Shown piece after piece: positions 4,785 through 49,800 of a stretch of 64,000 nt of DNA. Both the position numbers and the translations under genes were made by a program. A model generated the notes under the pieces. That model saw only the letters and a program-made list of their open reading frames with translations, was not told the DNA's origin and did not search any database. Location: the NCBI GenBank assembly GCA_016188215.1, contig JACPIF010000001.1, forward strand, positions 5,923 to 69,922. Direction: 5' to 3'. Position 1 is the stretch's first letter, and the number at the start of each line of letters is the position of its first letter. Source of the DNA: Candidatus Woesearchaeota archaeon. GTDB lineage: Archaea > Nanobdellota > Nanobdellia > Woesearchaeales > JACPIF01.

Positions 4785-5398
4785 AGCAGCATCCTCACAT
4801 CAACAATATGGCATCCATCTTCATTGATAAGTATAGGGTTAAAGTCAAGCTCCTTTACTGCCTCTTTTTCCATGAGCCTTGCCACTCTGCTTATGATATC
4901 AGCCAGCTGATTTTTGTGGTGCATATCCAAGGGTATTGGAATCTCTTGTATCATCTCAAGCGCCTGGCTTGCAGTAATAGGGCAAATTCTAATAGCAGTC
5001 TGCCTGAGCGCTTCGGCATAAATTCCTCCAAAACCAAACAAGACAATAGGGCCGAATGAGGCATCCTGCTTGCCGCCAACTATGATTTCAAATCCGTCAA
5101 CCTGCGGCTGCAGAACCAGCTCAAACCTTGTGATGTGATGCTCATGGATAATTTCAAGCATGCTTTTGTGGGCTGCAACTAAACCAGGCTCATCCCTGAT
5201 ACCTGTAATGACGGCCCCTGCCATGCTTTTATGGAGAATCTCCCGGGCATAGAGCTTGAGGACGCAGGGGTAGCCTATTTTTACTGCCTGCCTTTTTAGC
5301 GCTGGAAAATCCTTATTGGACGCACTTGCAAAAATGATTGGCTTGAGCCTGTATCTTTTCAGCAGCCCAACACTTCCTTTAAAATCCATCACCCTCAT
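4781..5398 (-). CDS. acdB: Acetyl-CoA synthetase (ADP-forming) beta subunit (ATP-grasp)
   Basis: 205 aa with an ATP-grasp-like sequence (YPCVLKL…GGIYAE). Operonic with the alpha subunit. Confidence 0.65.
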   Translation of the reverse strand: MRVMDFKGSVGLLKRYRLKPIIFASASNKDFPALKRQAVKIGYPCVLKLYAREILHKSMAGAVITGIRDEPGLVAAHKSMLEIIHEHHITRFELVLQPQVDGFEIIVGGKQDASFGPIVLFGFGGIYAEALRQTAIRICPITASQALEMIQEIPIPLDMHHKNQLADIISRVARLMEKEAVKELDFNPILINEDGCHIVDVRMLL

Positions 5399-5528
5399 TT
5401 TATAGCATAATAATTGTCCTACATTTTAAAAGCTACTCAAAAGCTGCCTTATTGACACCTTTTAGCAATATTTATATAGAAGTAATACTATAGTAGTATA
5501 ACTCCTTAGTGGGAACTAAGTGTTATGA

Positions 5529-25435: not shown

Positions 25436-25452
25436 AGCCTTTTTATACAGAA
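25436..25452 (-). promoter_or_regulatory. Candidate TATA box (minus-strand GTATAAAAAGG) and 5-prime UTR hairpin for the L3 operon
   Basis: AT-rich TATA-like element about 60 nt upstream of the L3 ATG. A perfect GTGATG/CATCAC palindrome at 25415-25430 lies between it and an AGAGGA Shine-Dalgarno. Confidence 0.3.
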
Positions 25453-25548
25453 ATCCCTGTAAGAACACTTGACGCGTACTGATCCAAGATTTCCTTATCA
25501 GGCTTGTCTCTTGCTATGGGGCATACCTTTGTAAAACCCCAATACAGA

Positions 25549-25566
25549 GGAAATGCGCACATTTCC
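25549..25566. repeat. GGAAATGC-NN-GCATTTCC hairpin module (third copy, standalone)
   Basis: ggaaatgcgcacatttcc. The same 8-bp stem occurs in copies C (45706) and D (49724). Confidence 0.5.
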
Positions 25567-25705
25567 TAGTCTTGAAAATCTTTGATTTTCAATACAGCCT
25601 TATTACGGGCTATAACTTGGTTTTGGAATGGCAGGGGATTTATAAAGGTTGCGGTGGGTTGTCCAATGAAAAAGCCTGTATTCACGTTTAAACTGTGATT
25701 TACCG

Positions 25706-25739
25706 CACTGGTCACTGGACAGGTGCAGACGTGAGCTAT
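25706..25739 (+). repeat. 34-nt motif CACTGGTCACTGGACAGRTG…CGTGAGNTAT, copy 1
   Basis: cactggtcactggacaggtgcagacgtgagctat, about 200 nt upstream of the Panacea cassette. Confidence 0.55.
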
Positions 25740-25941
25740 TTAAGTTCATTCCTGCTTTTTCCCCATTACAGAGGATAAATTTTAATACTAGTATTTTAAT
25801 ATTAAAATACTATGACGAAGTTACAGCATACAGGTAAACAATTTTACTTGAATATTCCCAAAGAGCATATCAGAAAATTAAACTGGAAAAAAGGAGACGA
25901 AATTTACATCACTAAAGATCCTATTAAGGACGTATTGTATT

Positions 25942-26514
25942 TTGAAAAAATGCCAGGAAGGAAAAAAAATGGAAGATGAAATTTCAATTGCCGAGAAATA
26001 TTTAATCCTTTTATTAGGAGTAGAAGATAAACCTATACCTAGTGAATTATATCTCCAGAAAGAAATTTTCGTTTTATCTCAATTTAGGCCAAAAATTCAA
26101 TCTATTTTTAACTTTCAGAAACACTATAAAGGTCCATATTCTCAACTAATAAGCGAAATAGTAGATGCACCGATTTACCATCCAGGCGCATTTGAAAAGA
26201 TTAATGAAAAAATAGTTATTACTAAGAATGGTAAAAATCAATATAGAGAGATTCTGGAAGAATATAGTAAAAACAACGAATTCAATACTTTAATCTCAAG
26301 TTTAATCTTTATTAGAAGACTTTATGAAAAATTAGATCAAGAACAATTACTTTTCTTGATATATACTAGTTATCCAAATTATATAGAATTTTCTAATATT
26401 TCTGATAAATTGCTAAAGGATAATCAAGTTAGATTGAGAATTAGTAGAGAGCTATTCCAAAAAGGCATTATTACTGAAGAAAGGTTTTTAGAATTAAAAG
26501 ATGATCAAAAATGA
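25942..26514 (+). CDS. Panacea/SocA-like (DUF4065) domain protein, putative antitoxin-like component
   Basis: ISIAEKYLILLL … LYLQKEIFVLSQ … FQKHYKGPYSQLI matches the Panacea hallmarks (LqKllY and GPv spacing). About 28-30% GC, far below the flanks. 4-nt overlap with the next ORF. Confidence 0.5.
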   Translation: MKKCQEGKKMEDEISIAEKYLILLLGVEDKPIPSELYLQKEIFVLSQFRPKIQSIFNFQKHYKGPYSQLISEIVDAPIYHPGAFEKINEKIVITKNGKNQYREILEEYSKNNEFNTLISSLIFIRRLYEKLDQEQLLFLIYTSYPNYIEFSNISDKLLKDNQVRLRISRELFQKGIITEERFLELKDDQK

Positions 26515-27050
26515 AAGACTTAGTTGCCGACTCAAGTTTTTATCTATGTTTCTTGGAAGATATTTGCAGCCCTTCTGATTTGGTTGCCATCATTGATAAT
26601 TTTAGGGCCCATTTAACTCCTTTAATTCATAAAGAAATTAAGAGATCAATCAATTTCTCATCAATAGATCAGCATGCTAATATTAATATTTTCTCAACAC
26701 CAAGTTTCAATATAGGTGAATTAGTTAAACCCTTCTTTTCAAAGAAGGAAATATCAAAGGGAGAACACGAAATTGTTGTGGCCGCATATTTTATTTATAA
26801 CACTAATAGAGATATTATAATAATTATTGATGAGAAAGGACCCAGGCAATTTATAATCAATCATTTGCCGGAATTAATACCTTTCCTTACTGGGACCGTT
26901 GGTATGGTTGGATCATGTTATTATACCTTTGCCATAATGGATAAACAGAAAACTTTAAATTTATTGGACCAAATAGGGTCTTCTAGATTTAGAGTAACTC
27001 AAAAAATATTAAATGAAATAAAAGAGAAGGTTGTGAACCACCGTGACTAA
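26511..27050 (+). CDS. Hypothetical protein, possible PIN-like nuclease (candidate toxin partner)
   Basis: The N-terminal LVADSSFYLCFLED and later GEHE / IIIDEKG / AIMDK acidic positions have PIN-like spacing. AT-rich. 8-nt overlap with the next ORF. Confidence 0.3.
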   Translation: MKDLVADSSFYLCFLEDICSPSDLVAIIDNFRAHLTPLIHKEIKRSINFSSIDQHANINIFSTPSFNIGELVKPFFSKKEISKGEHEIVVAAYFIYNTNRDIIIIIDEKGPRQFIINHLPELIPFLTGTVGMVGSCYYTFAIMDKQKTLNLLDQIGSSRFRVTQKILNEIKEKVVNHRD

Positions 27051-28170
27051 AATCCAAATTAAAGAAGTTATTGAAGACAAAACATCCGATTTCAATATTA
27101 AACGATATAAACTTTCAGGATTAACTTTGGATGAGCCGATAAAGACTTTTGATATTTCTTTAACTACAAATGGTCTGTTTAACGGTATTAAAATTAAGAA
27201 TAAGGTTCTTGAAAAACGAAAATCAATAAGACATTTTGAAACAATTAAGAAAGTTATAGAAGAAGATGATGATAAAATTATTAATCAATTCTTTGGAAAA
27301 GCACAATGGGCAGCAGGATATCCCTCCTTGATTAATGTAACTTTTGATTTTAATCCTTATAACTTTGTTAATAAAATGGAATCAATTGCTTCGTTTTTTG
27401 ATTATTATTATACTTATTCCAAAGATTTACTATTTGTACCAAATATTCGCTACAAGAAGTCAAATAACATTATAATAGATCTCGCAAATTATAAGAAATT
27501 TGTTGATGAAGTCTATAATCTATTAAATAAAAAAAATTCAAAACCAATTTTTGTACCTATATCACTAAGATTTCCTATAAAATATTATGAAGATTTAATA
27601 AAACATTATAAGAAAAAAGACTATCTTTATTTCTGGTTTGATTTTGAAGGGAAGCCCATAAATGAAGCAATAGCTGGAAGAATAAGGAGTATTAATTCAC
27701 TTATAAGAGAGCAAGGGCTGTTTAAACAATCTATAACCTATTTTACTAATATTAAGCGAGAAATTTTATCTAACATCAAAGACTTGGATAGTCCAGCATC
27801 CGATATCCTAGCAACTGTAATTGGAGCAAATATTACAGGAGTTAATAGGGAACCATTAAGATTTTTTGAATCAGGTGTTGAAGTTCCAGATCCAAATGAG
27901 ATTTGGAAACATAAGGCTAGAAATTTTGATAAAGATTCTTATTACTATGTCAAGAAAAAAGGGCCTGTGGAAAAAAAGAATGAAAATTTTACAAATAATA
28001 GTATTGTATTGAATGAAGAGCTTAGTAACCAAAGCGAGTATTTTTCAAAGAAATTAGAAATTAGAAATTATCTTTTAAAGAAAAGGATGTTAAATGAGTA
28101 CCAAAATGGTAATTTCTTAAGAAGGATTACAAATTCTGGTAGACAGGCTGGATTGAGTAGCTTCTTCTAA
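27043..28170 (+). CDS. Hypothetical 375-aa protein (third gene of the AT-rich cassette)
   Basis: No recognisable motif. Very low GC and Lys/Asn/Ile-rich. Its stop abuts the stop of the convergent rhomboid gene with zero spacing. Confidence 0.45.
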   Translation: MTKIQIKEVIEDKTSDFNIKRYKLSGLTLDEPIKTFDISLTTNGLFNGIKIKNKVLEKRKSIRHFETIKKVIEEDDDKIINQFFGKAQWAAGYPSLINVTFDFNPYNFVNKMESIASFFDYYYTYSKDLLFVPNIRYKKSNNIIIDLANYKKFVDEVYNLLNKKNSKPIFVPISLRFPIKYYEDLIKHYKKKDYLYFWFDFEGKPINEAIAGRIRSINSLIREQGLFKQSITYFTNIKREILSNIKDLDSPASDILATVIGANITGVNREPLRFFESGVEVPDPNEIWKHKARNFDKDSYYYVKKKGPVEKKNENFTNNSIVLNEELSNQSEYFSKKLEIRNYLLKKRMLNEYQNGNFLRRITNSGRQAGLSSFF

Positions 28171-28809
28171 TTATCTCCTAACAACCTCCATCCTAACCAA
28201 AACCCACATCACCACATACCCGAATACAAAGCCGCCGACATGGGCCCAGAATGCGATGCCTGCTCCTGTGCTGTCGAATAAGGAGAAGCTGCCCAATATG
28301 AGCTGCAAGATGAACCAGAAGCCTATCATGTAAACTGCTGAAATTTGGTGGAATCCAAACCTGCCTGCTACATGGATTTTGACATGGGGAAACAGCGCCA
28401 AATATGCTCCCAGGATTCCAGAGATGGCTCCTGATGCTCCAATTGTAGGGATATCGCTGCCTATATTAGTAAGATAATGCAATAAAGTTGCGGCAATGCC
28501 TGACAATATATAGAATACAATGAAGTAGAGCCTGCCGAGCCTGTCCTCAACATTGTCTCCAAATGTCCACATATACCACATGTTGCCGAAGATATGCTCA
28601 ATGCCTCCATGGAGGAACATTGAGGTGAATACTGTCAGCAGGGCAGGATGCAGCGGAGTAAAGCCAAATGTGCTTATAACCTGCTCAAAGTCAGTCAAGC
28701 TGTAGAGAAATACAAGCACGTTGACAGCTATGAGCGTGACGGTGACAAAGGGAAACTTTTCCCTGGGATTCTCATCCTTGTAGGGGAAGAATTGCGCTTT
28801 TTTGTCCAT
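28171..28809 (-). CDS. Rhomboid family intramembrane serine protease
   Basis: GASGAISGILGAYL (GxSG) and AHVGGFVFG (catalytic His), with 6 TM helices. Confidence 0.8.
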   Translation of the reverse strand: MDKKAQFFPYKDENPREKFPFVTVTLIAVNVLVFLYSLTDFEQVISTFGFTPLHPALLTVFTSMFLHGGIEHIFGNMWYMWTFGDNVEDRLGRLYFIVFYILSGIAATLLHYLTNIGSDIPTIGASGAISGILGAYLALFPHVKIHVAGRFGFHQISAVYMIGFWFILQLILGSFSLFDSTGAGIAFWAHVGGFVFGYVVMWVLVRMEVVRR

Positions 28810-28821
28810 TTTTGTTAGTTT

Positions 28822-28952
28822 TTACTTATACTAATTTGGACGGCTTCGCCGCCATGCGCTTCGCGCACTGCAATATGTCCCCCGATTTGCTGTAAAATAC
28901 GATTCGGGGGACTCCTCGCACCCCGGAGCGAACCTTTAGGTGAGCGACTACT
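28822..28952. repeat. GC-rich modular hairpin repeat, copy B, between priSL and the rhomboid gene
   Basis: Shares tttactt, CTTCGCGCACTG, a GTCCCCCG…CGGGGGAC 8-bp stem with a TTGCTGTAAAA loop, and TCGCACCCCGGAGC with copies C and D. Confidence 0.6.
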
Positions 28953-28955
28953 TTG

Positions 28956-30370: not shown

Positions 30371-33064
30371 TTGAGAGGGCAGAGTATGAAGATTATTTTA
30401 CCTATCATAATTATTTTTGTCTTAACAGTACTTAGTGCAAGCTATGTCTTTAGTGTTTCTTCACCTTACATAAAAGGATTTGTTTATGATAATTCCCTTC
30501 CTGACGAACCAAGATACAAGTATGTTTGCTTCAATACAAATGATAAAACTTATAGCATGAATATCACTCATGATTCTATGAGTTTTCAATGCTCCATAGT
30601 TAATGTTTCTGACACCCTAATTAGAGTTTTATGTGACAGCAGACATGATGGCAATGGGGATGGTAAATGCCAGAGCGGTGAATCCTGCATTGGCTATAGT
30701 TTCTACTCTGACAGGTATAATGTTGTAGATACAGATGGCGCATTTTCTTTTGATCCACCAGCTAGCTGGACTAGTATTCTTGATGAGAATGGCTATATGC
30801 ATTATAGCTACCTAATTGACATATGGGTATTTCGCAACACTGGACTAGACGAGTTAGTTGTAACACAACAGAGTGGCAGTGTATGTCCTGCTCCTAGAAT
30901 TGTAAATTACAATATCTATAATACCACAAATGAGAGTGGTCAAAATGTTGTAACCATTGGAATTAATACAGATCTTGATGGCTCATGTAAATTGTCGAAC
31001 CAATCCGGTACAGCATTTGAGAATATGATTTCTTTTAATGTGACTGGAGCAAATAGACATAACTATAGTTTTGTTCCTGAAGAGAATCGCAATTATACTT
31101 TCTACGCCAAGTGTAATAATTCAATAGGTAATATAAATAGCGAAGAGTCAAAAATTACATTTCTATTTGAATCAAGCAAGCCAGTTTTCTCATTTAATGA
31201 ATCTAAAATAAATATCTCTACTAACCTTACTATTGGGCTTTTTGCTCCGTTTTCTGACTATGGTTTTGGGTTTGCTGTAAATACAAGCTGTGAAATCTGT
31301 ATAGCTTCTGATAGAATTTGTGACACTGAATGGACGACTCAAGATGTAATAACAAATTACTCAAATGATTATTTAAGCGGTAATTGCTCTTATTCCTGGA
31401 ACAATTCAAATAACACAGATGCGCATTATAATGTAAGTTTCAGAATAAATGATATTTTAGGAAATAAAGGCATTGCTTCTAAACAAATTACTCTGGACAG
31501 GTATCCTCCTGAATTTAGGTTATACGACCCTTGGGACAATAAAGTGTTCACAGTAAATAATTCACAGATTGGCACAAATTTAACTACAGACGTGACTTTC
31601 TACTATGATGTACATGATTTAACTTCTATAGCAAATTGCTCATTAAAAATTAATGGGAAGGTAAATGCAACAAATACAACTGCTGGAGGAGGCTTCCACA
31701 AGTTTAGAGTAGATTTTCCAACAAATTTTGAAGGAGCAAAGAGTTTTAACTGGAGCATAAATTGTGCCGATGTTTTCGGATCTGAACTTATAGGTCAAAC
31801 AAGGAAATTTACTTTTATAGTGCTAGGAAATTTCTCAGGGGAAACTACTGATTTGAGTGCCGTGAATTTGTCTTATATACCTAATTTAACCTTTGAAGAA
31901 TCAAACTTAGGAAAGATCAAATTTATGGATATCATTAATTTAAGTAATGCATCTTTAAATCTCAATGATTATATAAAAATTTCCACATATAGAATAGAAA
32001 TAAACAGTGATGCCCTGCCTGCCCTCAACAAACCAGCTACATTATATATGTATAATGTTACCTACAGCAATCCCCGTATTATACGAGATGGAGAAGTGTG
32101 CCCCTCTGCTATCTGCGCCATTGTAAATGTCTCAAATGGGACTGTCATCTTTAATGTCACCCAATTTAGCACATATACCCTAGAAGAGACACCAGCTTCT
32201 TCTGATCCTTCTGACCCATCCACTCCAAGCGATGAAGGCGATTCAGGAGGCGGAAGTGGAGGAGATTCTAGCAGTGGAGGGTCTTCTGGTGGCTCAGGAG
32301 GAGGTTCCTCTGGCAGTGGTGGCGGCGGGGGAGGCGGTGGTGGAGGGGGCGGGAGCTCAAGCGGAAGCACTTCACCAGGAATGAAGGCCGAGCGGTTTTA
32401 TGACATTGTAAAACCAGATACGCCTATTGTTTTTACTGTTAGAAATGATGAACTTGCTGTGACTAAAATCACTATTAATCCAGCAATTCAGAGAGAAAAT
32501 GTAAATATTATGGTAGAGAAGATAGTGAATGAAACGAAAGTAACTCTACAGCTTCCAAACACGCTACAATACCTTAATTTAAGTGTTACAAATCTTGAAG
32601 ATACTTCTATTCAGGCCGCTTCATTTGAGTTTAAAATAGGCAAAACTTGGTTAGTTGATAGAAATTTTGAAAGTACAGACGTTGCGATGAAAAGATTCAA
32701 AGATGGGGTATGGGGCAATCTACCGACTTCTATAGTTAATGAATCCCAATATGATTACTCTTACATAGCATCCACTCCAGGATTCTCAATTTTCGCTATA
32801 ACTGCTGAAAAGCAAAAAGAGAAGGTAAGTCAAGAACCAACTCAAATTATGAAAGAAGAAAATATAGCCTTTCAATCCGTTGAACCAGTTGCCGAGGATG
32901 TCAATAATACGAATGTCAAAGACGAAAACCTTATTACTGGTTCAGCTGTAACAATTCCTGCAGAACAAGCCCATTTAAGATATACTTGGTTATTAATCCC
33001 TGCTATAGCAGTTTCACTAGGTTTACTTTATCTTTATAGGAAATATACAAAAAAGAAAAAATAA
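30371..33064 (+). CDS. Large secreted surface (S-layer-like) glycoprotein with a poly-Gly/Ser linker and C-terminal TM anchor
   Basis: Signal peptide MKIILPIIIIFVLTVLSASYVFS. More than 50 N-x-S/T sequons. A G/S run of about 60 aa at 32230-32390. C-terminal TM LLIPAIAVSLGLLYLY plus RKYTKKKK. Confidence 0.6.
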   Translation: MRGQSMKIILPIIIIFVLTVLSASYVFSVSSPYIKGFVYDNSLPDEPRYKYVCFNTNDKTYSMNITHDSMSFQCSIVNVSDTLIRVLCDSRHDGNGDGKCQSGESCIGYSFYSDRYNVVDTDGAFSFDPPASWTSILDENGYMHYSYLIDIWVFRNTGLDELVVTQQSGSVCPAPRIVNYNIYNTTNESGQNVVTIGINTDLDGSCKLSNQSGTAFENMISFNVTGANRHNYSFVPEENRNYTFYAKCNNSIGNINSEESKITFLFESSKPVFSFNESKINISTNLTIGLFAPFSDYGFGFAVNTSCEICIASDRICDTEWTTQDVITNYSNDYLSGNCSYSWNNSNNTDAHYNVSFRINDILGNKGIASKQITLDRYPPEFRLYDPWDNKVFTVNNSQIGTNLTTDVTFYYDVHDLTSIANCSLKINGKVNATNTTAGGGFHKFRVDFPTNFEGAKSFNWSINCADVFGSELIGQTRKFTFIVLGNFSGETTDLSAVNLSYIPNLTFEESNLGKIKFMDIINLSNASLNLNDYIKISTYRIEINSDALPALNKPATLYMYNVTYSNPRIIRDGEVCPSAICAIVNVSNGTVIFNVTQFSTYTLEETPASSDPSDPSTPSDEGDSGGGSGGDSSSGGSSGGSGGGSSGSGGGGGGGGGGGGSSSGSTSPGMKAERFYDIVKPDTPIVFTVRNDELAVTKITINPAIQRENVNIMVEKIVNETKVTLQLPNTLQYLNLSVTNLEDTSIQAASFEFKIGKTWLVDRNFESTDVAMKRFKDGVWGNLPTSIVNESQYDYSYIASTPGFSIFAITAEKQKEKVSQEPTQIMKEENIAFQSVEPVAEDVNNTNVKDENLITGSAVTIPAEQAHLRYTWLLIPAIAVSLGLLYLYRKYTKKKK

Positions 33065-36808: not shown

Positions 36809-36842
36809 CACTGGTCACTGGACAGATGTGCGCGTGAGATAT
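36809..36842 (+). repeat. 34-nt motif CACTGGTCACTGGACAGRTG…CGTGAGNTAT, copy 2
   Basis: cactggtcactggacagatgtgcgcgtgagatat, starting 3 nt after the htpX stop and about 90-140 nt upstream of the LAGLIDADG-like gene. Confidence 0.55.
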
Positions 36843-36931
36843 ATAAAGGCTAACCTCTCCCATTGATTAACTCATTCAATATAAATCCCACTAGGATGTG
36901 TTCAGCTTTCAAATTATGATTTCCAATTCTC

Positions 36932-38095
36932 GTGAAATCATTTACAAAGCTTCACATAATTAAAAAGACGGTGATTTACATGAATTCGCTTAATCAAATC
37001 AAAATTAGAGAGTTCCACATTAATCAATTTCCCACTGATAGAATATTCATTTCTTTAAACGAGAGTTTTCATAGAGAACTCTTTTCCATGATAAATATTA
37101 AAAATTATGAAAATTTGAATAAATCAACTTTTAAGCAATGGAAAAATAGAAGGCATTTTATTCCACTCTGGGTTATCATTAAGCTGCAGGAAACTTCACC
37201 ATATTCTATAGAAGACTTTGAAAGAAATATTATCGCGTATAAGGGTCCTAGTACCTCTGCTGTGATCGATAACCCATGTTTGCCTTTACTGGAGGATGAA
37301 AGACTACTGCGTGCTGTGGCCCACTTATTAGGAGACGGATTTGTAGGAGGCGGCTTTGGCAGTAAGTTGCCTCAAGGGAAGCAACACTCAGAATTTAGAA
37401 ACTTTGCTCCGGAACTTTTGGACAGTTTCCATAGAGATTTATCGGTATTTGGAAATGTTCCTGTAACTAAAAATTATCAGCACGGTTCTTTAGTAATACC
37501 CAATTCTATAGGGTATATCTTATGTCATCTTTATAGGATAAAGTTTGACACATTTAATTCACGAGTGCCAGAAGTATTTTTTAATCTTCCTAAAGAGTTG
37601 GTAGCACAATTCTTACGCGCCTTTGCAGATGATGAAGCACACGTTTTTGATAGTTCTATTGAGTATTATTCATGTAATAAGGATCTATTGCAAGATGTAC
37701 TATCTTTAATGAATTCACATTTTCCAGAGATTAAGACTTCTGGAATTAAAGCCAATATTAAAGCAGGAAGAAATACAAAGTATTCATTTTCAGTTTATAG
37801 CAAATCTCAAGAATTGTACCTGAATCATATAGGATTTGACCACAATCAAAAAACAAAAGATTTAACATTTAATCTAAGTCGCAATAAAAATAGAAAATAC
37901 AACAAAAATTCTCGCGATATAATTCTGGATTTATTAGCAAATAATACTTTATCTGCAAAGGAACTCTCTAGAATTACGAATATCACTCATGTACAAGTTT
38001 TGGCTTATCTTAAAGAACTTAAGGAACAAAGAAAGGTAAAAATTATTGAAAAAGTACATTGGGCTAATCGATGGACTTCTAAATTATCTCAATAA
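36932..38095 (+). CDS. Free-standing LAGLIDADG-like protein with C-terminal wHTH (possible homing-endonuclease relic)
   Basis: Two motifs about 100 aa apart: VAHLLGDGFVGG and FLRAFADDEAHV. C-terminal HTH LSAKELSRITNITHVQVLAYLKEL. Low GC. Confidence 0.4.
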   Translation: MKSFTKLHIIKKTVIYMNSLNQIKIREFHINQFPTDRIFISLNESFHRELFSMINIKNYENLNKSTFKQWKNRRHFIPLWVIIKLQETSPYSIEDFERNIIAYKGPSTSAVIDNPCLPLLEDERLLRAVAHLLGDGFVGGGFGSKLPQGKQHSEFRNFAPELLDSFHRDLSVFGNVPVTKNYQHGSLVIPNSIGYILCHLYRIKFDTFNSRVPEVFFNLPKELVAQFLRAFADDEAHVFDSSIEYYSCNKDLLQDVLSLMNSHFPEIKTSGIKANIKAGRNTKYSFSVYSKSQELYLNHIGFDHNQKTKDLTFNLSRNKNRKYNKNSRDIILDLLANNTLSAKELSRITNITHVQVLAYLKELKEQRKVKIIEKVHWANRWTSKLSQ

Positions 38096-44579: not shown

Positions 44580-44682
44580 ACGGTAGTGGTCTAGTGGTAT
44601 GATTCGAGCTTCCCAAGGTGGGCTGCGTTATCCAACCGCTAGGAGTCAGCTTGCGATGCGGGTTCGATTCCCGCCTACCGTA
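44580..44682 (+). tRNA. tRNA-Gly (anticodon CCC) with a ~32-nt intron at the canonical 37/38 position
   Basis: Acceptor ACGGTAG/CTACCGT. T-arm GCGGG-TTCGATT-CCCGC. Anticodon arm CGAGC-TTCCCA|intron|A-GCTTG. 103 nt total, about 71 nt after intron removal. CCA not encoded. Confidence 0.65.
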
Positions 44683-45649: not shown

Positions 45650-45782
45650 TGACGAGCGCGAAATGCGCGCTACAAAATCACGGAAACTTTTGTTTCCGGG
45701 ACTCGGAAATGCAAGCATTTCCTTTGTGTCCCCGAGTGATTGCTGTGAAGCCTGAAATTCGGGGACTGTTCACAGTCCAGTT
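45650..45782. repeat. GC-rich modular hairpin repeat, copy C, upstream of tgt
   Basis: AGCGCG-aaat-GCGCGCT, CGGAAAC-tttt-GTTTCCG, GGAAATGCaaGCATTTCC, GTCCCCGAG…TTGCTGTGAA…ATTCGGGGAC, and an inverted ACTGTTCACAGT. Confidence 0.6.
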
Positions 45783-49597: not shown

Positions 49598-49800
49598 ATT
49601 TACTTACTAACGTGCAGTGCACCGCTTCGCGGACAGCGCTCGGATAAATCCTCGCGCACTGTGAACAGTTCCCGAACCACAATACACAGTGAATCATCGA
49701 AAATCCGTGATTTTCGAGGCTAGGAAATGCCCGCATTTCCTTTGATTCGGGGACCCAATCGCACCCCGGAGCCGAGGTTAATCTCGGCGACTAATTTCCC
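49598..49800. repeat. GC-rich modular hairpin repeat, copy D, between pcn and rnj
   Basis: catttactt…TGCACCGCttCGCGG…GCGCTCgga-taaa-tccTCGCGCACTGTGAACAGT, plus GGAAATGCccGCATTTCC, GATTCGGGGAC and TCGCACCCCGGAGC. Confidence 0.6.

Follow-up and report, generated by a model that had tools for sequence, protein, structure and literature searches.

Far less is mapped of the defence and toxin-antitoxin systems of archaea than of those of bacteria. In one predicted and mostly archaeal family an antitoxin-type gene is followed, in overlapping frames, by a gene for a PIN protein (Makarova 2009, PMC2701414; Matelska 2017, PMC5499597). The antitoxin, UPF0175 (COG2886), is a predicted helix-turn-helix (HTH) protein reported to be encoded exclusively next to COG2405/DUF3368 PIN genes (PMC5499597; PMC2701414), and the three-component COG2405 systems described so far involve an HTH protein and a DUF955 protease. 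In PanAT a Panacea (DUF4065, PF13274) antitoxin domain, with partners that are swapped, is encoded just upstream of the partner (Kurata 2022, PMC8832971). DUF4065 is reported to be homologous to the helical C-terminal domain (CTD) of the antitoxin DarG, which binds and inhibits DarT (2026, PMC13621843). The tRNA-guanine transglycosylase (TGT) fold has its own precedents in conflict systems, namely DpdA in Dpd, Cap10 in type IV CBASS and a homologue in a proposed BREX-related system (BRC). The locus considered here lies in a 64,000-nucleotide (nt) stretch of a Candidatus Woesearchaeota archaeon, ‘the window’ in what follows (contig JACPIF010000001.1, positions 5,923 to 69,922), and is a cassette of four open reading frames, ORF0 to ORF3, with resemblances to each of these systems.

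With a probability of about 0.5 we infer that the cassette is a mobile toxin-antitoxin-like or defence module, the effector of which would be a PIN nuclease (ORF2) together with a TGT-fold nucleic-acid-binding enzyme (ORF3). A swappable DNA-binding protein, an antitoxin-type protein, a PIN and a TGT fold side by side fit such a module, and the gene overlaps, the low GC content, the insertion and the patchy spread likewise do so. Small co-directional overlapping genes, a patchy mobile distribution and a DNA-binding regulator are also traits of type II toxin-antitoxin systems generally, and a preliminary description of this DNA, made from its letters and a list of open reading frames, was right to see a toxin-antitoxin-like operon in it, and one of more than two components. 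Compared with the three-component COG2405 systems, the third partner here is a protein of predicted TGT fold instead of an HTH protein and protease, and neither Dpd, nor Cap10, nor the proposed BREX-related system pairs its TGT homologue with a PIN or with an antitoxin of the ORF1 type.

In scans of Pfam, NCBIfam, PADLOC and PHROGs neither ORF3 nor ORF2 found a match. The ORF3 family profile gave noise, and no TGT, among PDB sequences, and an hhalign comparison of the family with a genuine TGT returned a probability of 0.4%, so that the catalytic residues of ORF3 are not mappable by sequence. A structure model made from an 83-sequence alignment (pLDDT 94, pTM 0.92) is built around a (beta/alpha)8 barrel, which is preceded by predicted N-terminal beta-strands and followed by C-terminal helices. 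In fold comparison this model scored 20.0 with bacterial TGT, 19.2 with QTRT2, 17.4 with archaeosine TGT, 14.9 with Cap10 of type IV CBASS, 14.5 with DpdA and 12.7 or less with generic TIM barrels; independently, Foldseek ranked QTRT1/2, TGT and ArcTGT at the top (E~1e-7, TM 0.5-0.6). ORF3 had previously been taken for a protein without recognisable domain and a possible new toxin fold, a view which the TGT fold given by these two methods displaces. Around 40 of its positions reach 90% conservation or more in the family; many of these are polar and fall on the predicted barrel strands or directly behind them (T100, N104, N134, K167, S174, D200, E202, T235, N236, R239, E240, S253, D254, N268, R269, E270, H290, K291, R293 and Y300-302), a pattern to be expected of an enzyme or of a protein that binds a specific ligand. 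As modelled, ORF3 is predicted to belong structurally to the TGT superfamily, its active site having been remodelled, and it has no detectable sequence similarity to TGT, QTRT1/QTRT2, ArcTGT, DpdA or Cap10.

The TGT used in the hhalign comparison is of interest in its own right: it is of genuine bacterial type (L006:3404-4618, minus strand; motifs TDSGGFQ, AFDEC, SFDCV and CxCxxC; PF01702 match at 9e-128) and its gene lies in a Nanoarchaeota metagenome-assembled genome (MAG), on the opposite strand and 306 bp upstream of a copy of the module, a single case which may be coincidence. A Dpd-like cluster was considered for the cassette and ruled out, there being no DpdB/C and no deazaguanine genes nearby. 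The partners of ORF3 also set it apart from the Dpd and CBASS proteins: no DpdB/DpdC, QueC-like or CD-NTase partner accompanies it, the other module proteins being a PIN and an antitoxin-type protein.

ORF1 had been described as a Panacea antitoxin. The LQK...F...GPYS motif behind that claim is indeed conserved and resembles that of PanAT antitoxins, and there is remote kinship through the DarG C-terminal superfamily, but scores arise with DarG C-terminal models and not with the Panacea family itself: neither ORF1 nor any of eight close homologues matched PF13274 at E<=1, so that the Panacea claim, read to the letter, falls by the test which the preliminary description had itself set. Among 57 distant relatives three matched PF13274, the best at 9.4e-4 and 20.5 bits (the cut-off being 25.7 bits), and one aligned to SocA_Panacea positions 1-105 of 113 at 9e-4. 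Against PADLOC, ORF1 matched the C-terminal part of DarG (model positions 159-290 of 329) at 5e-5 and PDC-M19A at 2.8e-6; in its 52-member family from syntenic loci 48 members matched DarG (best 4e-9) and 50 matched PDC-M19A. An exhaustive profile search gathered 473 representatives. The profile of the close family gave only noise among PDB sequences, and the superfamily profile that includes distant members matched a DarG chain (7yk3_B, 1.1e-6) over the LQK...F...GPYS region. The DarG CTD (PDB 7YK3) is the best sequence-level match of the ORF1 N-domain. DarTG as the identity of the cassette was ruled out, since none of its proteins matches the DarT ADP-ribosyltransferase or the macrodomain.

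The other end of ORF1 leads to a second antitoxin family. Pfam UPF0175 was found at residues ~148-195 in 40 of the 57 distant relatives, several above the gathering score of 27.9 bits; ORF1 and its close family did not match PF03683 (the UPF0175 HTH). ORF1 aligns end to end with the UPF0175-bearing relatives but stops shortly past the first UPF0175 helix, where the HTH would continue, and so only a remnant is left. ORF1 can accordingly be described, from its sequence relationships, as a DarG-CTD/Panacea-like domain with a putative degenerate UPF0175 tail, and it is directly upstream of the PIN-fold ORF2, an order kept in 47 of the 54 loci discussed below. With the UPF0175-COG2405 pairs the cassette thus has in common a PIN gene placed after an antitoxin-type gene, the frames overlapping, a wider ORF1 family with genuine C-terminal UPF0175, a PIN resembling a COG2405 structure, and nearby regulators of the AbrB type, with apparent ribbon-helix-helix types too. 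It differs from them in that a plain UPF0175 protein is only around half as large as ORF1, with the DarG-CTD/Panacea-like N-domain added, in that its UPF0175 part is a short non-scoring tail, and in the invariant third gene of predicted TGT fold. Judged by these comparisons, ORF1-ORF2 appears to be a variant of the predicted UPF0175-COG2405 toxin-antitoxin family to which a DarG-CTD/Panacea-like domain has been added.

For ORF2 the sequence support for a PIN domain is thin. Its family profile matched nothing among PDB sequences, PF11848 (DUF3368) was matched by two of 51 family members at 8e-5 or weaker, and precomputed PF11848 matches are on record for seven of 12 homologues, the sole one with a stated strength being marked weak; its structure was therefore modelled. 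The model, from a 12-sequence alignment (pLDDT 91.9), has a PIN fold, so that the earlier recognition of ORF2 as PIN-like holds good, and it resembles 2mdt, the structure listed for COG2405. On this model ORF2 is presumed to be a PIN nuclease of COG2405/DUF3368 type. Its acidic residues E42 and D107 are invariant (100%) and D7 is at least 90% conserved.

The module is not confined to this genome: it belongs to a family conserved across archaea. Among 5.8 billion protein clusters there are 99 relatives of ORF3, with E down to 1e-91, all of them unnamed and none with a Pfam domain. A scan of one genome per species, over 185,579 species genomes, found 54 loci with module genes, a rare and patchy distribution that takes in Nitrososphaeria, Bathyarchaeia, Methanomicrobia (Methanoregula, Methanosarcinales), Thermococci, Archaeoglobi, Thermoplasmatales, many DPANN lineages, Asgard archaea and a few MAGs labelled bacterial. 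By family hidden Markov model searches 47 of the 54 have ORF1, ORF2 and ORF3 in co-linear order and closely spaced, the seven exceptions being five loci cut by contig ends and two with ORF3 fragments only; look-ups starting from an ORF1 homologue and from an ORF2 homologue gave the same order of a small gene, proteins of ~180 aa and ~180 aa, and one of ~400 aa. Over 43 loci the pairwise distances of the three proteins correlate (Spearman 0.56-0.72, Mantel p<=5e-4), most strongly for ORF1 with ORF3 (rho 0.72), which indicates that the three genes travel and diverge together, though the correlation may partly reflect a few deep clades. In this the module is unlike PanAT: where Panacea swaps partners, the three genes here are fixed and co-evolving. 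In most loci the GC content of the module is below that of its flanks, and its neighbours vary between genomes, with many housekeeping genes among them. Recurrent neighbours are Eco57I/MmeI-type restriction-modification enzymes (six proteins), DDE transposases (six) and integrases (four).

Some of these loci deserve separate mention. The bacterial-labelled contigs (L007, L039, L042, L049 and L056) are attributed to Paceibacterota (a 389-kb contig), Deltaproteobacteria, Gracilibacteria and Cloacimonadota, and are explained either by transfer between domains or by mis-binning. In L037, L041, L044 and L046 ORF3 is split or in fragments, and L037 and L044 lack an adjoining ORF1 or ORF2; these look like decaying copies, as is expected for a dispensable mobile module. 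A protein of ~1000 aa adjoins the module in L016, L018, L028, L035, L046 and others, a batch scan of neighbours gave six Eco57I/N6_Mtase and four MmeI-type methylase matches, which are not assigned to individual proteins, and a phage-type integrase adjoins the module at L140:11-1309; these hint at defence-island or mobile-element contexts.

In the present genome the cassette is a 2.4-kb insertion, acquired horizontally, that extends from ~25.75-25.79 kb to 28.17 kb. Eighty related loci were retrieved from metagenomes by means of the flanking L3 protein and then searched for the flanking genes and the cassette. In the closest relative (L058, the L3 protein of which is 70% identical) the order is primase, rhomboid, a 624-bp spacer, L3, L4; these genes all point the same way and there is no cassette. 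In ~30 further L3-anchored loci the primase gene is ~200 bp from L3. No homologue of ORF1, ORF2 or ORF3 was found in any of the 80 loci, L058 included. The preliminary description had proposed that the cassette was foreign and that its synteny in relatives be checked; low GC content, the empty site in L058 and its absence from 80 of 80 loci bear the proposal out, the cassette not being conserved at this position. The edges can be placed by alignment. Intergenic DNA on the L3 side at ~25440-25660 is homologous to the L058 spacer (L058 ~5265-5500), including a CCGCAACCTTTATAAA box, which puts the left edge of the foreign DNA at ~25745-25790, and the 3' end of the rhomboid gene, read directly, can be aligned with L058 up to its stop at 28171, which puts the right edge there. 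Neither direct or inverted repeats flanking the insert, nor a target duplication, nor a terminal inverted repeat was found; there are no tRNA genes or Rfam RNAs at the cassette, and no integrase is encoded beside it in the window.

The layout is given in Table 1. The cassette is transcribed in the direction opposite to that of its neighbours, which are the L3/L4 ribosomal-protein operon (divergent, minus strand, L3 start 25382) and a convergent rhomboid gene on the minus strand with a primase gene beyond. Its frames overlap by 11 nt (ORF0/ORF1), 4 nt (ORF1/ORF2) and 8 nt (ORF2/ORF3). Its GC content is 0.24-0.31 (0.283 module-wide, ~20 points under the flanks) and that of the L3-operon and rhomboid/primase flanks is 0.45-0.54. 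Much of this had been stated before, and the two shorter overlaps, the coordinates on the plus strand, the AT-richness and the ending of the cassette at the rhomboid stop, which the ORF3 stop abuts, were all found again. Two points had to be changed: a fourth gene, ORF0, had been overlooked, and ORF1, which had been begun at a TTG at 25942, most likely starts at an ATG nine codons downstream, as public gene calls and the alignment of homologues indicate. Several contigs of a single metagenome study show the same layout, as does a Candidatus Woesearchaeota MAG at NCBI, in which all three core proteins are labelled hypothetical.

Table 1. Positions, in the window, of the cassette genes and of the other features discussed
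Feature	Position	Strand	Description
ORF0	25812-25979	+	55 aa; probable AbrB/SpoVT/MazE-type DNA-binding protein
ORF1	25969-26514	+	181 aa; antitoxin-type protein
ORF2	26511-27050	+	179 aa; predicted PIN-fold protein, COG2405/DUF3368 type
ORF3	27043-28170	+	375 aa, GTG start; predicted TGT-fold TIM barrel
Palindrome	25790-25811		22 nt; candidate promoter/operator of the cassette
38-nt motif, first copy	25706-25743		upstream of ORF0
38-nt motif, second copy	36809-36846		upstream of the ORF at 36932
Hairpin, first copy	25549-25566		GGAAATG-N4-CATTTCC
Hairpin, second copy	45705-45722		GGAAATG-N4-CATTTCC
Hairpin, third copy	49723-49740		GGAAATG-N4-CATTTCC
Rhomboid-primase spacer	28810-28955		146 nt; GC-rich
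Second low-GC stretch	30371-33064	+	897 aa; probable surface protein
tRNA	44580-44682	+	spans 103 nt; Rfam 50 bits

ORF0 has weak but concordant matches (Pfam MazE_antitoxin 5.8e-4; NCBIfam doc_partner 4.4e-5 and AbrB 3.1e-4) and is probably an autoregulator or accessory antitoxin of the AbrB/SpoVT/MazE-like kind. Its start codon is abutted by a perfect palindrome, AGTATTTTAAT followed directly by ATTAAAATACT (11+11 nt, 100% complementary, no spacer), within an AT-rich TATA-like stretch, a candidate promoter/operator for the cassette. Of 47 related loci ~20 have a small gene that terminates where ORF1 starts: in some it is AbrB/MazE-like, while it encodes a winged HTH protein in one and is seemingly ribbon-helix-helix-like in others, where the sequences were read by eye and gave one marginal ParG match. 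Toxin-antitoxin operons typically have small DNA-binding proteins that can replace one another in this way (PMC5499597), and the AbrB/MazE types and the seeming ribbon-helix-helix types are usual regulators of such operons.

How might the four genes act together? ORF0, possibly with ORF1, would repress the operon at the palindrome. ORF1 would bind the effector directly and keep it silent, as the DarG CTD does with DarT and as is predicted for UPF0175 with COG2405 PINs, and on loss or titration of ORF1, through loss of the element or through infection, the effector ORF2+ORF3 would be released. The TGT-like pocket of ORF3 might then bind nucleic acid, most likely tRNA, the substrate class common to TGTs and VapC-type PINs, and flip out a base, after which ORF3 would either excise that base or present the substrate to the PIN nuclease, the cut of which would bring about growth arrest. 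What the analysis shows is the gene content, the modelled folds, the remote homologies, the insertion, the strict synteny and the co-evolution. Toxicity, interaction partners, substrate and chemistry are all put forward here as what would suit such genes, and the substrate with less confidence than the overall reading.

Several observations weigh against a toxin-antitoxin-like or defence module with a PIN and TGT-fold effector. TGT and DpdA proteins have as hallmarks a CxCx2Cx22H zinc site and three invariant active-site aspartates, which serve as general acid/base, in base recognition and as nucleophile (PMC10164549). ORF3 has no such zinc site, being without any cysteine, as are 21 of its 83 family members, with no conserved cysteine column in the family. 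In its barrel only D200 and D254 are invariant, and by predicted strand order these are not obviously on the strands that bear the TGT aspartates. With the zinc site missing and only two invariant aspartates, TGT-like chemistry is not established, though on the model it is possible; the TM-scores of ORF3, 0.5-0.6, are also modest. ORF2 keeps three of the four canonical PIN acids, with an invariant T129 at the place expected, by sequence position only, for the fourth, and could thus be a nucleic-acid binder and not a nuclease. COG2405 proteins are reported to retain two to five acidic residues (PMC5499597), and a working metal site in ORF2 is plausible. ORF1 and ORF2 miss the Pfam thresholds of the families with which they are compared, and genes of the ORF0 type are present in fewer than half of the loci. 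Finally, viral contigs were searched for ORF3 relatives and held none, and there was no defence-island enrichment beyond ~6 of 47 loci, so that an antiviral role is only one option.

A more specific proposal, tentative and more doubtful than the module itself, is that ORF3 founds a new branch of the TGT fold, a zinc-less enzyme in the part of effector or sensor of a conflict system, acting either as a toxin that excises or exchanges bases in tRNA or DNA or through recognition of modified bases of 7-deazaguanine type in viral DNA, the substrate then passing to the PIN.

Irrespective of that proposal, the genes could be arranged otherwise. In an analogue of restriction-modification ORF3 would be a protective modifier of host tRNA or DNA, ORF2 would cut unmodified, foreign or new nucleic acid, and ORF0 and ORF1 would be controllers. 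TGT-fold enzymes mark self DNA in Dpd and have been proposed to do likewise in BRC, type IIG/IIL restriction-modification genes are beside the module in several genomes, and the strict coupling of an enzyme-like with a nuclease-like gene suits a modifier-nuclease pair. We nevertheless consider this improbable, as ORF3 has neither the zinc site nor a recognisable catalytic triad of the base-exchanging TGTs, there are no 7-deazaguanine synthesis genes in the sampled module neighbourhoods, the detectable homologies of ORF1 are only to toxin-binding antitoxin domains (the DarG CTD and UPF0175), and PINs of the COG2405 clade are known from toxin-antitoxin contexts (PMC5499597).

Just as improbable is a plain two-gene type II toxin-antitoxin system, with ORF1 the antitoxin, ORF2 the PIN toxin and ORF3 an accessory passenger. 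Such a system would have the attraction that UPF0175-COG2405 is an established predicted two-gene pair (PMC5499597; PMC2701414) and that a third gene, where a PanAT locus has one, was as a rule found to be an inconsistent accessory (Kurata et al., PMC8832971), but a passenger would hardly be as constant as ORF3, which is present with ORF1 and ORF2 wherever the contig allows, and they with it, which overlaps ORF2 and co-evolves with both of the others, and which is the largest of the three proteins and rich in highly conserved residues. A strict PanA-PanT arrangement, in which ORF1 would be a Panacea antitoxin, ORF3 the sole toxin, of novel fold, and ORF2 a non-catalytic PIN-like adaptor, is unlikelier again. 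The remotely Panacea-like N-domain of ORF1, the loss of the fourth canonical acid from ORF2 and the closeness of the ORF1-ORF3 distance correlation speak for it; PF13274 is unmatched by ORF1 or its family, however, the fold of ORF3 is TGT-like and not novel, and the two invariant acids and the nearly invariant D7 of ORF2 argue for a functional metal site. Lastly, a housekeeping operon that serves RNA processing or the modification of tRNA, as proximity to the L3 operon and the occurrence of TGT and PIN folds in enzymes of RNA maturation (ArcTGT and NOB1, for example) might suggest, is effectively excluded by the empty site, the cassette being missing from the closest relative and from every one of the 80 related L3 loci, far lower in GC content than its flanks, transcribed against its neighbours, and found in so few species with such variable genomic neighbours.

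The module of a PIN and TGT-fold effector under an antitoxin-type protein is apparently undescribed so far. PADLOC 2.0 has no model matching ORF2 or ORF3 and no complete module match, and no description was found in PADLOC, Pfam or the searchable literature, coverage of the latter being incomplete, so that an earlier description is possible. Here, then, is a compact module of three or four genes that spans most major archaeal lineages and the largest protein of which has no Pfam family. ORF1 joins a DarG-CTD/Panacea-type domain to the UPF0175 lineage, antitoxin families that are usually handled separately. Should ORF3 act on nucleic acids, the TGT fold would gain a role beside tRNA modification, DNA 7-deazaguanine insertion by DpdA and protein conjugation by Cap10, and ORF3 would be a small enzyme that may flip out bases; should ORF3 found the new branch proposed above, the module would be a novel type of toxin-antitoxin or defence system in archaea, and the first in which a PIN is obligately paired to a protein of transglycosylase fold, with a DarG-CTD/Panacea-like antitoxin over both. 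The module is easy to test, being small and having a clean empty site as its counterpart in a close relative.

Other features of the window came to light in passing, starting with the repeats. A hairpin at 25549 and a 34-mer at 25706 had been thought to bound the cassette on its left; both exist, but they are dispersed motifs and not boundaries. The hairpin, GGAAATG-N4-CATTTCC, is present at three places in the window, with 0.01 copies expected by chance, and is a dispersed intergenic element of the genome; its copies at 45.7 and 49.7 kb are embedded in longer 34-nt repeats and the copy nearest the cassette has a 12-nt insertion relative to L058. The 34-mer has only one other copy in the window, 11 kb away at 82% identity. 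It is part of a 38-nt motif (CACTGGTCACTGGACAG...GCGTGAG.TAT.TAA, 82% identical between the copies) that is on both occasions ~70-90 nt upstream of a plus-strand ORF and terminates in a TATA-like box, so that both copies may serve as the same kind of promoter or regulator site. In that case the foreign cassette would be driven by a host-type promoter element.

On the L3 side, ~220 nt upstream of the gene are conserved as DNA with L058 although the L3 proteins are only 70% identical. The conserved blocks are CCGCAACCTTTATAAA and CAAGCCTGA.AAGG.AATC, and the region probably serves the ribosomal-protein operon as promoter and leader; it may also hold a regulatory RNA. On the other side the spacer between the rhomboid and primase genes, the counterparts of which in L058 are only 38 nt apart, has a stable hairpin (-45.5 kcal/mol, z -2.6) with no Rfam match.

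The preliminary description had also put the remainder of the window near 45-50% GC; the window is not so uniform, GC content being low at 30.2-33.2 kb as well. The gene in that second stretch (GC 0.31-0.39) encodes what is probably a surface protein: its N-terminus is signal-like, its C-terminus has a hydrophobic anchor, and in between are many N-x-S/T sites and a long run of Gly and Ser. The gene may be another acquired one. Further along, the tRNA listed in Table 1 was detected with Rfam, ARAGORN finding none anywhere in the window, and its length suggests an intron-containing archaeal tRNA.

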